A stretch of DNA of 64,000 nucleotides from Candidatus Melainabacteria bacterium 17Bon1m (GCA_032128875.1 JAVLKG010000001.1:480001-544000); one strand, 5' to 3'; shown: positions 3,369-32,151, counted from the first letter of the stretch. A program made the numbers and translations. Notes: generated by a model not told the origin, from the letters alone.

Positions 3369-3402
3369 GAAAAAATAGAGGGGTGTCCTTCGGGCACCCC
3401 TC
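3369..3402 (-). terminator. Intrinsic terminator
   Basis: GAGGGGTGTCC/GGGCACCCCTC hairpin followed by T6 on the minus strand, just after the stop at 3422. Confidence 0.7.
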
Positions 3403-3421
3403 AGTACTGCTTTCTTGTTAT

Positions 3422-3901
3422 CTAAGCTTTCTTTCTCAGCTTAATTGGCTCGATTGATTCGCCAGCGCGCAGCTTTGCTACTTCTTCACCAAGCTTGTCC
3501 AAATCGTATTCGGCATTTTCGATGCAAGGAATTAGAGATGTTTCTTCCCGTTCAATTAATTTACAAACGGCTTCTCTAAGCTCTTTCATCTTTGCTTCGA
3601 ACTCTTCCTTGTCGATGTCGGCATATAGACGTTGAACCTGTGCCAAATGCATTTTGACGCTGTTGTCGCTGTCCTTTAGCTCATCAACAAATGAATTGTC
3701 TTCGGCCATTTGCGCAGCCGCTGGGAAAATAATTACTTCGTCGACGCGGGCGTGTTCTTGCAGTTGCATTCCCAGTTCGCGGACGATATTTTCTTTTTCT
3801 TTCACATCACCGGCGGTATCATACTTTTGCAGAAGTTTTTTGATATCTTCGTGGTCTTTACGAATAACCTCACAAGCAGATATCGCTTTATTCTTAGCCA
3901 T
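3422..3901 (-). CDS. Hemerythrin/HHE-like protein
   Basis: IRKDHEDIKKLL and LQEHARVDEVIIFPA motifs; CAGGAG RBS. Confidence 0.75.
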   Translation of the reverse strand: MAKNKAISACEVIRKDHEDIKKLLQKYDTAGDVKEKENIVRELGMQLQEHARVDEVIIFPAAAQMAEDNSFVDELKDSDNSVKMHLAQVQRLYADIDKEEFEAKMKELREAVCKLIEREETSLIPCIENAEYDLDKLGEEVAKLRAGESIEPIKLRKKA

Positions 3902-10992: not shown

Positions 10993-11066
10993 GTGGAATT
11001 CCTGAATAGCGCAGAATGGTAAATTCTGCCAATTACTGAATTTCTGGAATTACCGAATTCTGCTAC

Positions 11067-11489
11067 TTACTGAATTGGACCGGTCTTCCGTTTCCGTTTG
11101 ACGTCGACGATCAACGTAATAAAGGACGCTATTGTGAGTCCTGATCCAAATGCGAAGAAGAGCACGGGAAGGAAGTAGAGGTTTAGCCAACTGTTGATTG
11201 TCCAGTTCTTTGGATCGCCCTTGTCGTAGAGAATTGGGACAGTGTCGCCGGTTTTGAATTCCGGTGGCGACGAACCAACTTTGCCTCTTCCCTCTATTGC
11301 TTCTCCGTTGTCCGGCCGAAATCGGACAATGGGATAGGACGCGCCCTTGCCACTGGCTTCTAGCCTGAGTACAGTACCAGATGTGGTGCCACCTTCTTTC
11401 AACAATCTCTGAGATTGGAAATAGAACGTTACGGCGACGGCATAGAAGACTATTGATAGCGAGCTGAGAAGCAAAATTACCTTGAACAT
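11067..11489 (-). CDS. DUF3592-type membrane protein
   Basis: Two TM helices flanking GTV...YPIVRF...GDTVPILYD..P. Confidence 0.75.
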   Translation of the reverse strand: MFKVILLLSSLSIVFYAVAVTFYFQSQRLLKEGGTTSGTVLRLEASGKGASYPIVRFRPDNGEAIEGRGKVGSSPPEFKTGDTVPILYDKGDPKNWTINSWLNLYFLPVLFFAFGSGLTIASFITLIVDVKRKRKTGPIQ

Positions 11490-11686
11490 GATTCACACCA
11501 CTTTGTCGGAATCATCAGGTTTCCCTCATCGGTTCGATCAAGAAACGCCTTGATCAATTTGTGCTGCTGATTTCATAGCTGTTTTCACATATGTAGGTAC
11601 ATTGTTGGAATCGCCAGCTGCGGTCAAGTCGACCGGTCGTCAAAAATGTAATTTCTGTAATCTCCTGTTACAGTCCCCACATTCTA

Positions 11687-11715
11687 TTGACAGCTCGGAC
11701 CCTAGACTGTAACGT
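11687..11715 (+). promoter_or_regulatory. Sigma70-type promoter of the arg leader/operon
   Basis: TTGACA (11687-92), 17-bp spacer, TAACGT (11710-15). Confidence 0.7.
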
Positions 11716-11750
11716 GGACAAAGGTTTTGTTTTTTCCAGGGCAACCAGAA

Positions 11751-11831
11751 ATGACCTTTGCGAATTACACCAGCAACAACCGACGTACGCGCCGCGTTCT
11801 ATTGAACTCGGGGCCGGCTGGGCTGCGTTGA
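11751..11831 (+). CDS. Arg-rich leader peptide MTFANYTSNNRRTRRVLLNSGPAGLR
   Basis: 26 codons, with CGA CGT ACG CGC CGC at 11781-95; lies between the promoter and a terminator upstream of argF. Confidence 0.8.
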   Translation: MTFANYTSNNRRTRRVLLNSGPAGLR

Positions 11832-11895
11832 TCTAGGTCACCAGAAACCACACCTTTAGCTCCCGAGTTCTTCTAGGACTCGGGAGTTTTCTTTT
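11792..11895 (+). promoter_or_regulatory. Transcription attenuator (alternative 1:2, 2:3 and 3:4 helices)
   Basis: Terminator CTCCCGAGTTCT/AGGACTCGGGAG + TTTTCTTTT (11860-95). GAACTCGGGG (11804-13) is complementary to the terminator 5' arm. CCGCGTTC/GAACTCGG forms a protector hairpin. Confidence 0.8.
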
Positions 11896-12001
11896 GTCCG
11901 TAGCCGGGTGACATCGGCAATACAAGCCAGAGTGAGCAGTTCAAGGCGAACAAGCAGCTCATCAACTGAGTAAAAAGCTCAGATATAGAGAGGGAAAGAC
12001 C

Positions 12002-13042
12002 ATGGTATTCACAATGTACAAAAAGCCGCCGACCACGCCTGTGGGCTTCAAGTCCCAGCGCATGTCTCCGCCGCAGCATGGTCGTTCGCCGCTCAACAAG
12101 GTTCTTGTAGAAGACACGCTGAGAGGCAAAGACTTCCTGGGCATCGGCTATTTCACCGCCGCTGAATTGAAGCTGTTTTTGGAAACGGCCGAACTGCTTA
12201 AAGCAAACAAGTTTGACGACACCCAAACCCTCTTCGCCAAAGGGCAGACTCTTGCGCTTTGCTTCGAAAAACCATCGCTAAGGACGAAAGTCACTTTCGA
12301 AGCCGGCATGATCCAGCTTGGCGGCAGTTCAATCTTCCTCGAAGACAAGCTTGGTGTCAGGGAATCCGTGCCGGATATCGCCAGAAACCTGGACAGGTGG
12401 TTGGACGGAATTATGGCGCGGGTGTTTGAACACAACACGCTTATCGTGCTTGCCGATTACGCTCAAGTCCCTGTAATCAACGGGCTTAGCGACCTCGAGC
12501 ACCCCTGCCAGGCACTGGCGGATTTTCTGACTATTAAGGAACAAAAAGCTATTAAAGATTGGAACTTCAAAGGAATCAACCTTGCATACGTAGGAGACGG
12601 CAATAATGTGGCTAATTCACTCATGCTTCTCGCCGCCAAGCTTGGCTGCAATTTCTCAATCGCGTGCCCGTCCGGCTATAAGCCCGACGCCACCCTTTGG
12701 GAAATGGCGATGGAAGAGGCGAAGCACACCGGTGCGCAATTAAAAATGACAGAGTCCCCCGCCGAAGCTGTTGCTAACGCGGATGCGGTCTACACCGACA
12801 CTTGGGTGTCGATGGGGCAAGAAGAGGAGATGGCGGAGAGAATCAAAATCTTCGAAAGCTATCAAGTCAACGAAGCTCTGTTGAAGTTTGCAAAACCGGA
12901 TGCCATCGTCATGCACTGTTTGCCCGCGCACCGGGGGCAGGAAATCACAGATGCCGTGATGGATGGACCACAATCAGTAGTTTTTGAACAAGCGGAGAAT
13001 AGACTCCACGTTCAAAAAGCAGTCATCTCACTAATCATGTAA
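12002..13042 (+). CDS. argF: Ornithine carbamoyltransferase
   Basis: FEKPSLRT, HPCQ, GDGNN, WVSMGQE, HCLPAHRG, QAENRLH. Confidence 0.95.
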   Translation: MVFTMYKKPPTTPVGFKSQRMSPPQHGRSPLNKVLVEDTLRGKDFLGIGYFTAAELKLFLETAELLKANKFDDTQTLFAKGQTLALCFEKPSLRTKVTFEAGMIQLGGSSIFLEDKLGVRESVPDIARNLDRWLDGIMARVFEHNTLIVLADYAQVPVINGLSDLEHPCQALADFLTIKEQKAIKDWNFKGINLAYVGDGNNVANSLMLLAAKLGCNFSIACPSGYKPDATLWEMAMEEAKHTGAQLKMTESPAEAVANADAVYTDTWVSMGQEEEMAERIKIFESYQVNEALLKFAKPDAIVMHCLPAHRGQEITDAVMDGPQSVVFEQAENRLHVQKAVISLIM

Positions 13043-13121
13043 TGCGGCAAAAACGCTGCGGTTGAAGGCTTTCTGCATCACCGACAGCGCAACGCAGCAT
13101 TCAAATCAAGGAGCAAATCAA

Positions 13122-14342
13122 ATGAAGAAAATTCTCTTGGCATACAGCGGCGGACTCGACACTTCCTGCATTCTCACCTGGCTGAAGGAGCAGTACAAGG
13201 TGCCTATCGTGGCTTATTGTGCCGATGTCGGACAGAAAGAAGATTTCGAAGCGGTCAAAGTCAAAGCGATCAAAACCGGCGCTGAGAAGTGCATTATTGA
13301 AGATTTGAACGAGACTTTCGTCAAGGATTACATCTTCAAAGCAATTAAAGCCAATGCGCTGTACGAGTCCTTCTACCTGATGGGAACCTCCATCGCTCGT
13401 CCGTGCATTGCGCAAGGCATGATTACTGCAGCTCTGAAAGAAGGCTGCGACACCATTGCTCACGGCGCTACCGGCAAGGGCAACGATCAGGTGCGTTTCG
13501 AACTGGCTGCTAAATCTCTGGCGCCTCATTTGAATGTGATCGCCCCATGGAGAATGTGGAAATTCGACGGCAGGAACGACCTCTTCGATTACGCGGAGAA
13601 GCACGGCATTCCTTTGCCGGTGACCAAAGAGAAGCCATACTCCATGGACGCCAACCTCATGCATATTAGCTATGAAGGCGGCATTCTGGAAGATCCGTGG
13701 GCGGAAGCTCCGGAGAACATCTATCTGTGGACTAAGAACCCGGAAGATGCTCCCAATAAGCCTGAATTCGTCACTATCGACTTTGATGCCGGCGTTCCTG
13801 TTGCAATCAATGGAGAGAAACTCGGCCCAGTAGAGCTACTCAACAAGGCAAATGCAATCGCAGCCGAACATGGCGTGGGAAGGCTCGATATGGTCGAAAA
13901 TCGCTACATCGGCATTAAGTCGAGAGGCGTTTACGAAACACCTGGCGTGACCATCTTGATGCAAGCGCACAAGGCAATCGAATCTCTTGTGCTCGACAAA
14001 GAAGTTATGCACCTCAAAGATTCGTTCACTCAGAAGCTATCGACCCAAATCTACAACGGTTACTGGTTTGCACCAGAAACCCAAATCCTCTGGAAGATGG
14101 TCGAAGAAACCCAACAACCCGTTACCGGTACCGCCAAGATTAAGCTCTACAAGGGCAATTCGATTGTAGTGGCACGGAAGTCTCCGGCGTCGTTGTACGA
14201 CCTCAAGGTTTCCAGCTTCGAGAATATGTCTGAGTTCCAATCGGCGGACGCAGGCGGATTTATCAATATCGCAGGACTGAGACTAAAAACCTGGAGCAAG
14301 AAAAATGCAAGTTTTGAGAAAAGCCTTCAAGCAACCCCTTAG
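13122..14342 (+). CDS. argG: Argininosuccinate synthase
   Basis: LAYSGGLDTS, HGATGKGNDQVRF, SRGVYETPG; AAGGAG RBS before ATG 13122. Confidence 0.97.
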   Translation: MKKILLAYSGGLDTSCILTWLKEQYKVPIVAYCADVGQKEDFEAVKVKAIKTGAEKCIIEDLNETFVKDYIFKAIKANALYESFYLMGTSIARPCIAQGMITAALKEGCDTIAHGATGKGNDQVRFELAAKSLAPHLNVIAPWRMWKFDGRNDLFDYAEKHGIPLPVTKEKPYSMDANLMHISYEGGILEDPWAEAPENIYLWTKNPEDAPNKPEFVTIDFDAGVPVAINGEKLGPVELLNKANAIAAEHGVGRLDMVENRYIGIKSRGVYETPGVTILMQAHKAIESLVLDKEVMHLKDSFTQKLSTQIYNGYWFAPETQILWKMVEETQQPVTGTAKIKLYKGNSIVVARKSPASLYDLKVSSFENMSEFQSADAGGFINIAGLRLKTWSKKNASFEKSLQATP

Positions 14343-15651
14343 TGACGTAGTCACTGAATTCGTTGCCTGCACGCACGCCGATGCGCATCTCGTCAAAGCA
14401 GATTTGACGGGCAGCAAAGCGCATGCTCAAATGCTCGCCGAAGAGGGGCTCATCAGCCCCTCTCAGGGTGAGGCAATTCAAGGCGGTTTGGACACTCTGT
14501 TGGCGAAAGCCGAAGAAGGGAAGTTCGAACTAAAAGTTGAGTATGAAGACGTTCACATGAATGTTGAGAAACAGCTTGAAGAGCTGATCGGTTCAGATGC
14601 TTTGAGGTTGCATACGGCGAGAAGCAGAAACGACCAGGTCGCGCTTGATTTGCGACTCTACACTGTCGGTGCGATTGATTCGCTTGTCGATGGTTTGAAG
14701 TTCCTTCAGGCTGCGATTTTGAAATCAGCGAAGAAGCATGCGGATGTCGTTATGCCGGGCTATACTCATTTGCAGCGTGCGCAGCCAGTTTTATACGCCC
14801 ATGCAGTTCTTGCTTTTCACGAAATGTTTTCGAGAGATATCGAACGTTTCACCGATTGCAAAAAACGCACTGCCGTTTCGCCACTCGGTGCCGGTGCGCA
14901 AGCTGGTTCTGGATTATCAATCAATCCACAATCGGTAGCAGCCAAATTGGGCTTTGAAAAGGTTTTCACAAACTCAATCGACGCTGTGAGCGACAGAGAT
15001 TTTGCAGCTGAGTTTTTGATGGCGTGTAGTTTGACTGCCGTGCACATTTCTCAGATGGCAGAAACATTGGTCATCTGGAGCAGCTCTGAGTTTGGATTTG
15101 TTGAACTGGCAGACAATGTGACGACCACTTCCAGCTTGATGCCTCACAAGAAAAACCCCGATCCACTGGAAATCGCTCGTGCAAAATCTGGTGCTGTAGT
15201 CGGCGACCTGGTTAACTTGCTCATCACGCTGAAGGCGTTGCCGCTTGGCTACAACAGAGACTTGCAAGAGACAAAGCCTCCTGTAATCAACTCTGCCGGC
15301 ATTGTCGGCGAAGCGCTGAAAGTGATGGCGTGCTGTGTAGACGCAGTTACGGTCAACGTTGAGAAAACGTTAGCCGCCGCTTCCGACCCCGCGTTGATGA
15401 CCACCGATCTTGTTGAGTATCTTGTGAACAAAGGCGTCCCCTTCCGTAAGGCGCACGAAACAATCGCTGAGATTGTGGCTGACGCATCGGAGAAAGGCAT
15501 GGCACTTCCTAAGATGGAATTGAGCGAGTATCAGAAGTATGCGGCGGAGTTCCACAACGACCTCTACGCACTCTTCGATCCAAAGCTCTCCGTCTCAGCC
15601 AAAAAATCCCACGGCTCGACCGGAAATGAGCAAGTAAAAAAGAATTTGTGA
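14305..15651 (+). CDS. argH: Argininosuccinate lyase
   Basis: EDVHM, LHTARSRNDQ, MPGYTHLQRAQP, SSLMPHKKNPD, YNRDLQE; overlaps argG by 38 nt. Confidence 0.95.
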   Translation: MQVLRKAFKQPLSDVVTEFVACTHADAHLVKADLTGSKAHAQMLAEEGLISPSQGEAIQGGLDTLLAKAEEGKFELKVEYEDVHMNVEKQLEELIGSDALRLHTARSRNDQVALDLRLYTVGAIDSLVDGLKFLQAAILKSAKKHADVVMPGYTHLQRAQPVLYAHAVLAFHEMFSRDIERFTDCKKRTAVSPLGAGAQAGSGLSINPQSVAAKLGFEKVFTNSIDAVSDRDFAAEFLMACSLTAVHISQMAETLVIWSSSEFGFVELADNVTTTSSLMPHKKNPDPLEIARAKSGAVVGDLVNLLITLKALPLGYNRDLQETKPPVINSAGIVGEALKVMACCVDAVTVNVEKTLAAASDPALMTTDLVEYLVNKGVPFRKAHETIAEIVADASEKGMALPKMELSEYQKYAAEFHNDLYALFDPKLSVSAKKSHGSTGNEQVKKNL

Positions 15652-30510: not shown

Positions 30511-32151
30511 CTAAAAGTTGTTGCAAATTCCATTTGGAAGTTTCTCTTTCGGCAGAGGACATTTCTGTTTCAGATATGTGTAGCAAGATGGAAAGAGACG
30601 CTCGAACTCGTATGATTTGTGCTTTTCCTTCTCGTTCATGTAGAGGTAAGCAAACATGTCGGCGAACAGCTGAGAACACCCGCGCGTTCCACGCTCTCTC
30701 GCCCAGCGTTGTCTGTAAACCAAGTTTTTTGGCATACGGGCGAAATCATGCACATAACGGTGCTTAAAAACAAGGCTTAGAGATGGTTTTCCCAGGCAGT
30801 GATCGAATGCATGACCGAACTCGTGTAAGACAATTTCAGTTGAAGATTCTCTGCTGTAAGGAATGCAAGAGTTGTCTTCTCCAATAATGACCTGCTTCTT
30901 CTTTTGACTGTAAAGCCCTGCGCACTTTTCCAATTCAGGATCCCATTTTCCGTTTGAGTCTTTGTACAGAGGTATCGCATACTCTGCGATTGTTGGCGAA
31001 ATCACAACAGAAACACCATAGTCTTGTAGCTGCTCAAGCACTGGCTTTGGAATTATTTCAATCGCATCTTCTACGATCTGCTTGGAAGTATTCGAGCGAG
31101 TGGTCTGTCTCAGAATCGTTACTGGAATTGTCGGTTTTGATGTGTCTCTTGCCGGTGGCTTTGGTGGGTTCTTTAGGGATTGTTGGCTGGCTGGAGGCTC
31201 GAAGTGAAGAGCGGAGAAATATTCTTGTGCTGCTTCATTCCAGTTGTGAGTTGTGAGGTAGCAGTCTCCTTTTTGTTCATGATACTTGTAGTTATTTGGT
31301 ACAACCTTGAGCGCCAAATCGAATTGATTTACTGCTTGAAGCGGCATTTCCAAACTCTGCAATAGACGGGCCAAGGCATACCGCCTATTGGGACAAGTCG
31401 GCTCAGCATTAACAGCTCGCTGCCAATATTGAAGCCACATGGTGTCGTTTCTCTGCTCTCTGTAGCAAAGCCCGAGATACTGATATGCGTCTGCATAGGT
31501 TGGGTCGATTGCAATCGCTTTCTTGTAATGTTCGATAGCGGCTGGAATCTCGTTCTTGTACTGATGAAAAAATCCGGACGCAGTTTCGGACACAGCCGTC
31601 TCTGATTGATCCATTGATTTTGCCAACTCTAATTCTTTCAGTGCCTTTTCTGGTTTGTGATGGCGGCTAAAGTAACAGCTGCGTATAAAATGCGTTATGG
31701 TCGAATGGGGTTGTAGCTTCTGTGCTTTGTCGAGTTGCTCAAAGAATTCGTCCTCCTTTTTCATGTTCAAGTAACAATAGGCTCTCCAAATGTGTGAATC
31801 GTATTTGAGTAAAGAATCCTCTGGAACACATTCGAAATTGAATAAGGCACTAGGATAATTTTGTCTGTTTGACGCGAGCTGACCTTGGACATAGGGATCA
31901 CTTTGATTTGACGACAACTGCTCGCTCAACGCTTTGGCGTCTTCGGGGGCACGCCCAGCTTGAAGAGAGCATTGATACAGCATGACGCGCACAAACTCTT
32001 TTTGATCAGAAGGCATGTCGGCGGCTACAGACCTTATCTGAATTTTGGGTTCTTCAACCGTTGGAGCGTCGTTCCGGCTAGCGTCCAGCGCCAATGCGGG
32101 CGCGAACAACAAAATGGATAAGCCTGCGGCAATGAGCGCTGTTTTTTGCAT
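30511..32151 (-). CDS. Exported TPR protein with a C-terminal ATLF-like zinc-metallopeptidase domain
   Basis: Signal peptide, multiple TPRs, VLHEFGHAFD, LFP.CY.YL. Confidence 0.75.
   Translation of the reverse strand: MQKTALIAAGLSILLFAPALALDASRNDAPTVEEPKIQIRSVAADMPSDQKEFVRVMLYQCSLQAGRAPEDAKALSEQLSSNQSDPYVQGQLASNRQNYPSALFNFECVPEDSLLKYDSHIWRAYCYLNMKKEDEFFEQLDKAQKLQPHSTITHFIRSCYFSRHHKPEKALKELELAKSMDQSETAVSETASGFFHQYKNEIPAAIEHYKKAIAIDPTYADAYQYLGLCYREQRNDTMWLQYWQRAVNAEPTCPNRRYALARLLQSLEMPLQAVNQFDLALKVVPNNYKYHEQKGDCYLTTHNWNEAAQEYFSALHFEPPASQQSLKNPPKPPARDTSKPTIPVTILRQTTRSNTSKQIVEDAIEIIPKPVLEQLQDYGVSVVISPTIAEYAIPLYKDSNGKWDPELEKCAGLYSQKKKQVIIGEDNSCIPYSRESSTEIVLHEFGHAFDHCLGKPSLSLVFKHRYVHDFARMPKNLVYRQRWARERGTRGCSQLFADMFAYLYMNEKEKHKSYEFERLFPSCYTYLKQKCPLPKEKLPNGICNNF

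Follow-up and report, generated by a model that had tools for sequence, protein, structure and literature searches.

A candidate leader-peptide attenuator reading tRNA-Arg charging ahead of argF-argG-argH in an Obscuribacterales (Melainabacteria) bacterium

By which device does a bacterium of the Obscuribacterales (Melainabacteria) adjust the last three steps of its arginine synthesis to the supply of arginine? Control of arginine synthesis is usually exerted by the ArgR repressor, and by T-boxes in some Firmicutes. The question is raised here by a 64,000-nucleotide (nt) stretch of the genome of Candidatus Melainabacteria bacterium 17Bon1m (GCA_032128875.1 JAVLKG010000001.1:480001-544000), hereafter the window, in which argF-argG-argH lie directly downstream of a leader carrying a candidate attenuator (11687-11897). 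According to our analysis, this leader is probably a ribosome-mediated, i.e., leader-peptide, transcription attenuator that reads the charging of tRNA-Arg and controls the three genes. As far as sequence reading and folding models can tell, it has every structural feature of the leader-peptide attenuator class. Arginine attenuation by ribosome stalling had been proposed in a preliminary description of the locus, and the proposal is supported in silico by conservation and by constrained folds. From the same evidence we infer that read-through would respond to arginine and that transcription would be coupled to translation.

The leader begins with a promoter-like TTGACA-N17-TAACGT arrangement, and transcription would start near 11722, some 7 nt past the -10 hexamer. 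Both this arrangement and the next element, a 26-codon upstream open reading frame (uORF) with four arginine codons in five positions, had been announced in the preliminary description and were found again when the sequence was read (Table 1). Arginine accounts for 942 of the 18,591 codons (5.07%) in the 53 open reading frames (ORFs) of the window; at that frequency, the probability of meeting at least four arginine codons in some five-codon window among 25 random codons is 5.2e-4. The uORF is presumably translated. Further downstream, an independent terminator scan picked out 11858-11888 as a hairpin; its stem has 14 pairs, among which 7 are G-C, its loop has 3 nt, and TTTTCTTTTG comes next. 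The corresponding helix was evaluated at -21.9 kcal/mol with ViennaRNA. A terminator with its U-tract had been placed 106 nt before argF, a position that holds, the argF ATG (12002) lying at that distance from the T-tract of the leader; the 12-bp stem proposed with it has to be revised, the tools giving 13-14 pairs. Because the closest ORF upstream of the leader (11050-11496) is on the opposite strand, this terminator is not the end of another plus-strand gene.

Four segments of the leader, numbered 1 to 4 in Table 1, can pair in three ways. Segments 3 and 4 form the terminator. The core of segment 2, GAACTCGGGG, pairs with 11861-11870 through nine Watson-Crick pairs and one G.U pair, which bears out the 10-nt complementarity to the 5' arm of the terminator that had been put forward as an antiterminator. 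The whole 2:3 helix (11804-11814 with 11859-11870, plus an internal stem) reaches -25.3 kcal/mol. The protector hairpin said to overlap the last arginine codons is likewise present as helix 1:2 (11789-11799 with 11804-11814), with two internal mismatches and a free energy of -14.1 kcal/mol. The fold of the leader as a whole (11720-11900) has a z-score of -3.2, and 1 of 200 shuffled sequences folded equally well. When the 5' arm of the terminator was paired with the leader upstream of it, the best duplex (-19.8 kcal/mol) fell on segment 2, a value equalled by 2 of 1000 dinucleotide shuffles of that upstream leader.

Relatives of the locus were sought by searching genome contigs with tblastn, the ornithine carbamoyltransferase (OTCase) encoded by argF in the window serving as query. 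Among the 80 loci returned, three were close and the other 77, at most 54% identical, included Anaerolineae, Nitrospira, Acidobacteriota and Pseudomonas. The close ones are L001, from a bacterial metagenome-assembled genome and with an OTCase 96% identical to that of the window, and L002 and L003 (67% and 64% identical), which both come from metagenome-assembled genomes of Candidatus Obscuribacterales, a group within the phylum Candidatus Melainabacteria. The full leader layout stands ahead of a syntenic argF-argG-argH in all three: TTGACA-N17-TAnnnT, a uORF starting with ATG, an arginine run, GAAC[T/C]CGGGG, and a terminator with its U-tract. The leader travels with the operon, since the neighbouring genes upstream differ among these close relatives. 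The -10-like hexamers read TAACGT, TAGTTT and TAACCT in L001, L002 and L003, at unchanged spacing, and the corresponding uORFs, which start with ATG at the same place, have 26, 29 and 30 codons; the start is fixed by an in-frame TAA immediately 5' of the ATG in L001. In each relative, the terminator hairpin has a free energy of -16 to -19 kcal/mol and a U-tract behind it. The core of segment 2 is invariant except for a T to C change in L003, and the stop codon follows segment 2 after 16, 16, 16 and 13 nt in the window, L001, L002 and L003, respectively.

The arginine codons themselves are kept while the peptide around them drifts. The runs are CGA CGT ACG CGC CGC in L001, four CGC codons in L002, and CGA CGC CGC CGC in L003, i.e., RRTRR, RRRR and RRRR. 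Those arginine codons that lie beyond helix 1:2 remain arginine codons by synonymous change (CGA CGT, CGC CGC and CGA CGC). The leader peptides of the relatives show 46% and 32% identity to that of the window, and the residues that never vary are M1, three arginines, one L, and the N and G for which segment 2 codes. The arginine run is the sole conserved block of the peptide apart from the residues encoded by segment 2. Such drift around a kept run is the pattern expected if selection targets the codon run and the RNA, and not the peptide. The check on relatives foreseen in the preliminary description thus came out in its favor, the arginine-codon cluster and the helices being kept, with compensatory changes, at the three related argF loci.

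The distribution of the arrangement was examined with a generic scan for a terminator combined with an arginine-run uORF, run on both strands of the window and of the 80 loci. Ahead of argF, the arrangement was found in the window and in L001-L003 only, and in none of the 77 distant loci. The scan also gave many weak matches within coding regions. The only other match with an ATG and four arginines out of five codons, at position 7022 of L032, was rejected: it lies inside a 418-amino-acid ORF on the other strand. A covariance model (R1) built from the four leaders and run against 81 sources (680,081 bases) gave four matches, which are its own inputs; it detected no second copy of the leader in the window and none before the argF of the 77 distant loci.

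The behavior of the predicted switch was simulated by folding the four leaders with the ribosome imitated by a 30-nt mask that could not pair. In a transcript ending before segment 4 and carrying no mask, segment 1 holds segment 2 and segment 3 is free. With the A site of the masked ribosome on any of the four arginine codons, and the transcript again cut before segment 4, the 2:3 antiterminator forms instead (-17 to -25 kcal/mol). When the mask is placed at the stop codon, helix 1:2 and the terminator form; helix 1:2 is also present in the unconstrained folds. Each of these outcomes was obtained with all four leaders, so that both conformers called for by the preliminary description form as the attenuation model needs. 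The three helices are mutually exclusive in these constrained folds, and the arginine codons are so placed in all four leaders that a stalled ribosome masks segment 1. In each leader, the terminator's 5' arm finds its best duplex partner in the upstream leader at segment 2; this duplex was equalled by 2, 2, 27 and 2 of 1000 shuffles for the window, L001, L002 and L003, respectively.

These folds are consistent with the following mechanism. Once transcription has started, a ribosome would load on the 26-codon uORF. With ample Arg-tRNA, it would pass the arginine cluster and segment 2 and reach the stop codon, 16 nt beyond segment 2; segment 2 would then be covered, or paired again with segment 1, the 3:4 terminator would form, and the RNA polymerase would halt at the U-tract near 11890-11895. 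When Arg-tRNA is scarce, the ribosome would instead stall at codons 11-15 and cover segment 1, leaving segment 2 free to pair with segment 3 as the latter emerges; no terminator would form and argFGH would be transcribed. In the absence of translation, helices 1:2 and 3:4 would both form, leading to termination.

Covariation within the helices was counted on hairpin-only alignments with hand-chosen ends (A4 for the terminator, A5 for the antiterminator), because the untrimmed whole-leader MAFFT alignments (A1-A3) misplace L003, setting its terminator one column out of register. For the terminator, 40 of the 42 cells are paired, and compensation on both sides is seen in 3 of the 11 pairs; a shift of the partners by one column lowers pairing to 62-64%, and the covariation score was equalled by 5 of 500 shuffles. 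For the antiterminator, 35 of 36 cells are paired and one of nine pairs has changed on both sides. In L003, a U-A to C-G change in helix 2:3 shares its segment 3 column with an A-U to G-C change in helix 3:4, a three-way covariation: since the two changes meet at one position of segment 3, segments 2, 3 and 4 changed together.

Several observations weigh against reading the leader as an arginine attenuator. The -10 hexamer TAACGT is weak, agreeing with TATAAT at only three of six positions, and for this reason the promoter-like site of the leader is absent from the output of a promoter scan. The Shine-Dalgarno sequence of the uORF is poor (AGGG or AAGG, 11-15 nt 5' of the ATG, in the window and L001). 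Helix 1:2 (CGCCGCG) contains two to three of the four arginine codons, so that part of the arginine run could be a by-product of a G+C-rich stem, as seen in one of its three frames. In L002 the antiterminator is a weaker, interrupted helix, matched by 27 of 1000 shuffles. The covariation statistics are weak, with four sequences from three distinct lineages; the hand-trimmed ends of the alignments, which put the arms in register, favor the structure; the covariation score of the antiterminator was equalled by 138 of 500 shuffles; and helix 1:2 is uninformative in this respect because it is nearly invariant (and poorly aligned, A6). Moreover, the terminator is present in every full-length minimum-energy fold; as with the attenuators already known, read-through must then be a matter of kinetics, which lie beyond the reach of these folds. 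Finally, a perfect 9-nt inverted repeat (GTTACAGTC, 11667-11675, and GACTGTAAC, 11705-11713) flanks the -35 box and overlaps the -10 hexamer, which suggests an additional, protein-based control.

This repeat, which is accompanied by a third half-site, CTGTAA (11655-11660), has one mismatch in L001 and is absent from L002 and L003. It may be the operator of a transcription factor, i.e., a lineage-specific second layer of control. A search for ARG boxes with an Escherichia coli-type consensus (up to three mismatches, a divergent operator being possible) gave none in 11500-12000, and across the window four ARG-box-like matches to the same consensus were observed vs 10 expected. No ArgR domain was detected among the 53 ORFs of the 64-kb window, three of which were compared with NCBIfam and 50 with Pfam.

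Could the switch be real and yet be set by something other than a ribosome on arginine codons? The choice between terminator and antiterminator might fall to a factor acting in trans, whether an RNA-binding protein, a small RNA or a metabolite, the uORF and its arginine codons then being by-products of the G+C-rich stem 1:2. The share of the arginine codons lying within that helix, the weak Shine-Dalgarno sequence and a uORF whose translation is presumed from sequence would suit this explanation, but we consider it unlikely. All four leaders retain the ATG, a frame open over 26-30 codons and, 13-16 nt past segment 2, a stop codon, while the peptide drifts, and the arginine codons beyond the helix are conserved through synonymous changes. 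The leader matches no Rfam riboswitch or T-box, and conservation from the start site to segment 1 is too poor to leave a candidate aptamer or protein site. A chance pairing of an arginine-rich short ORF with a hairpin is harder still to credit, and we give it hardly any weight: out-of-frame short ORFs with arginine runs are common in coding DNA and the scans gave many, that of L032 among them, but the whole arrangement recurs in the three relatives, down to 64% OTCase identity, vs none of the 77 other loci, and the shuffle controls of fold and arm complementarity disagree with chance, as does the probability of the arginine run.

Other explanations give the uORF a role of its own. It might encode an arrest peptide that senses free arginine in the ribosome tunnel and stalls at high arginine. 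Arrest peptides such as the fungal arginine attenuator peptide, TnaC and SpeFL are known, and runs of arginine in a nascent chain can slow ribosomes. However, stalling at the arginine cluster favors the antiterminator in the constrained folds, so that high arginine would induce arginine synthesis, the wrong sign for a biosynthetic operon. An arrest peptide also needs a conserved peptide, whereas here nothing is kept beyond the arginine run and those residues that segment 2 imposes, and this explanation appears very improbable. The leader could also be an independent small gene, for a small RNA or a basic micro-protein, that happens to stand beside argF, with the argF promoter in the 106-nt spacer. 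The unit does have promoter-like and terminator elements of its own, and the terminated leaders of other attenuators act in trans, as described for rnTrpL (10.1101/606483). Yet a promoter scan of the spacer between terminator and argF gave no promoter-like site, the unit always stands directly 5' of argFGH despite differences in the flanking genes, the peptide lacks conservation, and the conserved complementarity between segment 2 and the terminator arm would serve no role. We hold this possibility, too, to be quite improbable, if a little less so than an arrest peptide. Attenuation by a ribosome reading tRNA-Arg charging accordingly stays our preferred reading of the leader.

Further features were observed around the start of the leader. 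The predicted 5' end of the transcript, CAAAGGT (11719-11725), is complementary to ACCTTTG right behind the start codon of the uORF (11754-11760). It is also complementary to ACCUUU ahead of the terminator (11851-11856), and the unconstrained fold takes the latter pairing; the complementarity is imperfect in L001. Initiation on the uORF could be modulated by it. Close upstream of the leader promoter, L001 carries, at the very end of its available sequence, a 36-nt tandem unit (positions 1-183; 5.1 copies, 97% matches) that is absent at the equivalent place in the window. In L002, a 62-codon ORF (3395-3583) lies immediately upstream of the leader promoter and, with E = 3.9e-10, matches only positions 1-50 of the 121-position semialdehyde dehydrogenase NAD-binding domain of Pfam. 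It resembles a truncated, N-terminal remnant of argC and hints at an older linkage between argC and argF.

The positions of the leader elements and of the three genes are collected in Table 1. The coordinates of argG are those of the longest ORF, and its true start may be later than 13062, the profile match beginning at residue 20. The OTCases of this clade have an N-terminal extension of about 40-50 residues ahead of the family profile (window 12002-12130, L002 3938-4075, L003 3917-4070), the profile beginning at residue 41-43 (window), 46-48 (L002) and 51-54 (L003). The extension is partly alignable among relatives (tblastn matches start at query residue 16-17), and a Q-R-M-x-x-P-x-G-x-S-P-L stretch, read from the sequences, is common to them. 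Elsewhere in the window, 22 of the 50 ORFs scanned had no Pfam match at E <= 1e-5, and a 546-amino-acid TPR-repeat protein is encoded on the minus strand (30511-32151), the C-terminal residues 356-529 of which weakly match Pfam ATLF (E = 2.6e-7, 31 bits, cut-off 27.4).

Table 1. Coordinates of the leader elements and of the argF-argG-argH genes in the window.
Feature	Position	Strand	Basis or remark
-35 box, TTGACA	11687..11692	+	Read from sequence; same in the four leaders; first six invariant columns of whole-leader alignment A1
-10-like hexamer, TAACGT	11710..11715	+	17-nt spacer after the -35 box
Putative leader-peptide uORF, 26 codons and TGA, MTFANYTSNNRRTRRVLLNSGPAGLR	11751..11831	+	ATG at 11751, TGA at 11829-11831
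Candidate regulatory codon cluster, CGA CGT ACG CGC CGC (Arg Arg Thr Arg Arg), codons 11-15	11781..11795	+	
Segment 1, 5' arm of the protector (anti-antiterminator) hairpin, overlapping Arg codons 14-15	11789..11799	+	Hairpin 11789-11814, -14.1 kcal/mol
Segment 2, core GAACTCGGGG at 11804-11813, pairing with segment 1 or segment 3	11804..11815	+	
Segment 3, 5' arm of the terminator and 3' arm of the antiterminator	11859..11871	+	Terminator scan, folding
Segment 4, 3' arm of the terminator	11875..11887	+	Terminator scan, folding
U-tract, TTTTCTTTT	11887..11895	+	Read from sequence, terminator scan
argF, ornithine carbamoyltransferase	12002..13042	+	NCBIfam TIGR00658, 385.8 bits (cut-off 280.85)
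argG, argininosuccinate synthase	13062..14342	+	NCBIfam NF001770, 583 bits (cut-off 334); longest ORF
argH, argininosuccinate lyase	14305..15651	+	NCBIfam TIGR00838, 520.4 bits (cut-off 279.5)

Leader-peptide attenuation is the textbook mechanism of enterobacterial amino-acid operons (trpL, hisL, leuL, thrL, ivbL/ilvL and pheL). The argFGH leader shares with these systems a short ORF close to the promoter in which codons for the end product cluster, four segments forming exclusive 1:2, 2:3 and 3:4 helices, an intrinsic terminator (3:4) before the first biosynthetic gene, and, as far as constrained folds can tell, the release of segment 2 by a ribosome stalled on the regulatory codons. It differs from them in its arginine codons, its argFGH operon and its Melainabacteria host, and in its stop codon, which lies 13-16 nt past segment 2 and not between segments 1 and 2 as in trpL. 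To our knowledge, the known biosynthetic leader-peptide attenuators cover Trp, His, Leu, Ile/Val, Thr, Phe and Cys. A search of the whole 64 kb with Rfam at gathering thresholds returned no match, hence no tRNA, rRNA, riboswitch or known leader, the Trp, His, Leu, Thr and Phe leader families included, and the T-box covariance model of Rfam did not match the leader. With the threshold relaxed to E <= 10 over 11500-12100, the only Rfam match was a microRNA family on the terminator hairpin, which is spurious.

With ArgR/AhrC and with T-boxes, the leader would share the feedback control of arginine biosynthesis and, with T-boxes in particular, the reading of tRNA-Arg charging through a terminator/antiterminator switch. 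Its sensor would be the ribosome, in contrast to the direct binding of a tRNA to the leader in T-boxes or of a protein to DNA in the case of ArgR/AhrC. The fungal arginine attenuator peptide (the arg-2/CPA1 uORF) likewise controls a gene of the arginine pathway from a uORF, but it belongs to eukaryotes and acts on translation; free arginine is sensed by a conserved nascent peptide, and there is neither an arginine-codon run nor a terminator. In Salmonella, the speF leader is said to use Rho-dependent termination and not an intrinsic terminator. In that leader, orf34 is reported to link, by its arginine codons, the supply of arginine with alternative conformations of the mRNA and with expression downstream, the controlled gene being one for polyamines (ornithine decarboxylase) and not for arginine synthesis (PMC6386406). 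In Staphylococcus aureus, the rbfL leader peptide detects limiting arginine by means of ribosome pausing at arginine codons (PMC13009471). Unlike the argFGH leader, rbfL has two rare AGA/AGG codons, its paused ribosome blocks the rbf ribosome-binding site, i.e., it acts on translation and without a terminator, and its target is a biofilm regulator that is repressed by arginine limitation.

Closest in kind is the uORFC-8-2 motif before cysS in Rhodobacterales, a recently described ribosome-mediated attenuator, lineage-restricted and found by computation, with 145 representatives (PMC8632094). It shares with the argFGH leader a conserved AUG, tandem cognate codons located in the first stem, and a terminator carrying a U run; it has cysteine codons, an aminoacyl-tRNA synthetase as target and 145 representatives vs four here. 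The accessible text of the same survey contains nothing for arginine genes beyond the carA hairpin (PMC8632094). In the part available to us of a comparative study of Actinobacteria, no RNA element is placed before arginine operons, and arginine genes are reported as T-box-regulated in other species (PMC1262725). The main text of a genome-wide survey of premature terminators does not mention arginine, argF, argG or argC (PMC2965389). More generally, no leader-peptide attenuator of arginine biosynthesis was found in the openly accessible literature, subscription-only papers and supplements lying outside this scope. What would be new here is the specificity for arginine, in a Melainabacteria host, the attenuation mechanism itself being known. 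We lean, with some reserve, toward the view that, among the classical attenuators, which combine a leader peptide with an intrinsic terminator, this leader is the first for arginine, and that the Obscuribacterales run the last three steps of arginine synthesis through a ribosome reading tRNA-Arg charging.

If so, one remaining gap among the amino acids sensed by leader-peptide attenuation would be filled, and a conserved arginine-codon attenuator would carry the mechanism over to another amino acid and into a phylum for which metagenomes are almost the sole source of knowledge. At about 180 nt, the leader would also serve as a compact, portable switch responding to arginine, one readily tested in E. 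coli. It would further mean that uORFs below the length limits of gene callers hold regulatory information in uncultured lineages. For the Obscuribacterales themselves, which are relatives of the cyanobacteria without photosynthesis, sensing of tRNA-Arg by the ribosome would replace or supplement the ArgR repressors and T-boxes used elsewhere.

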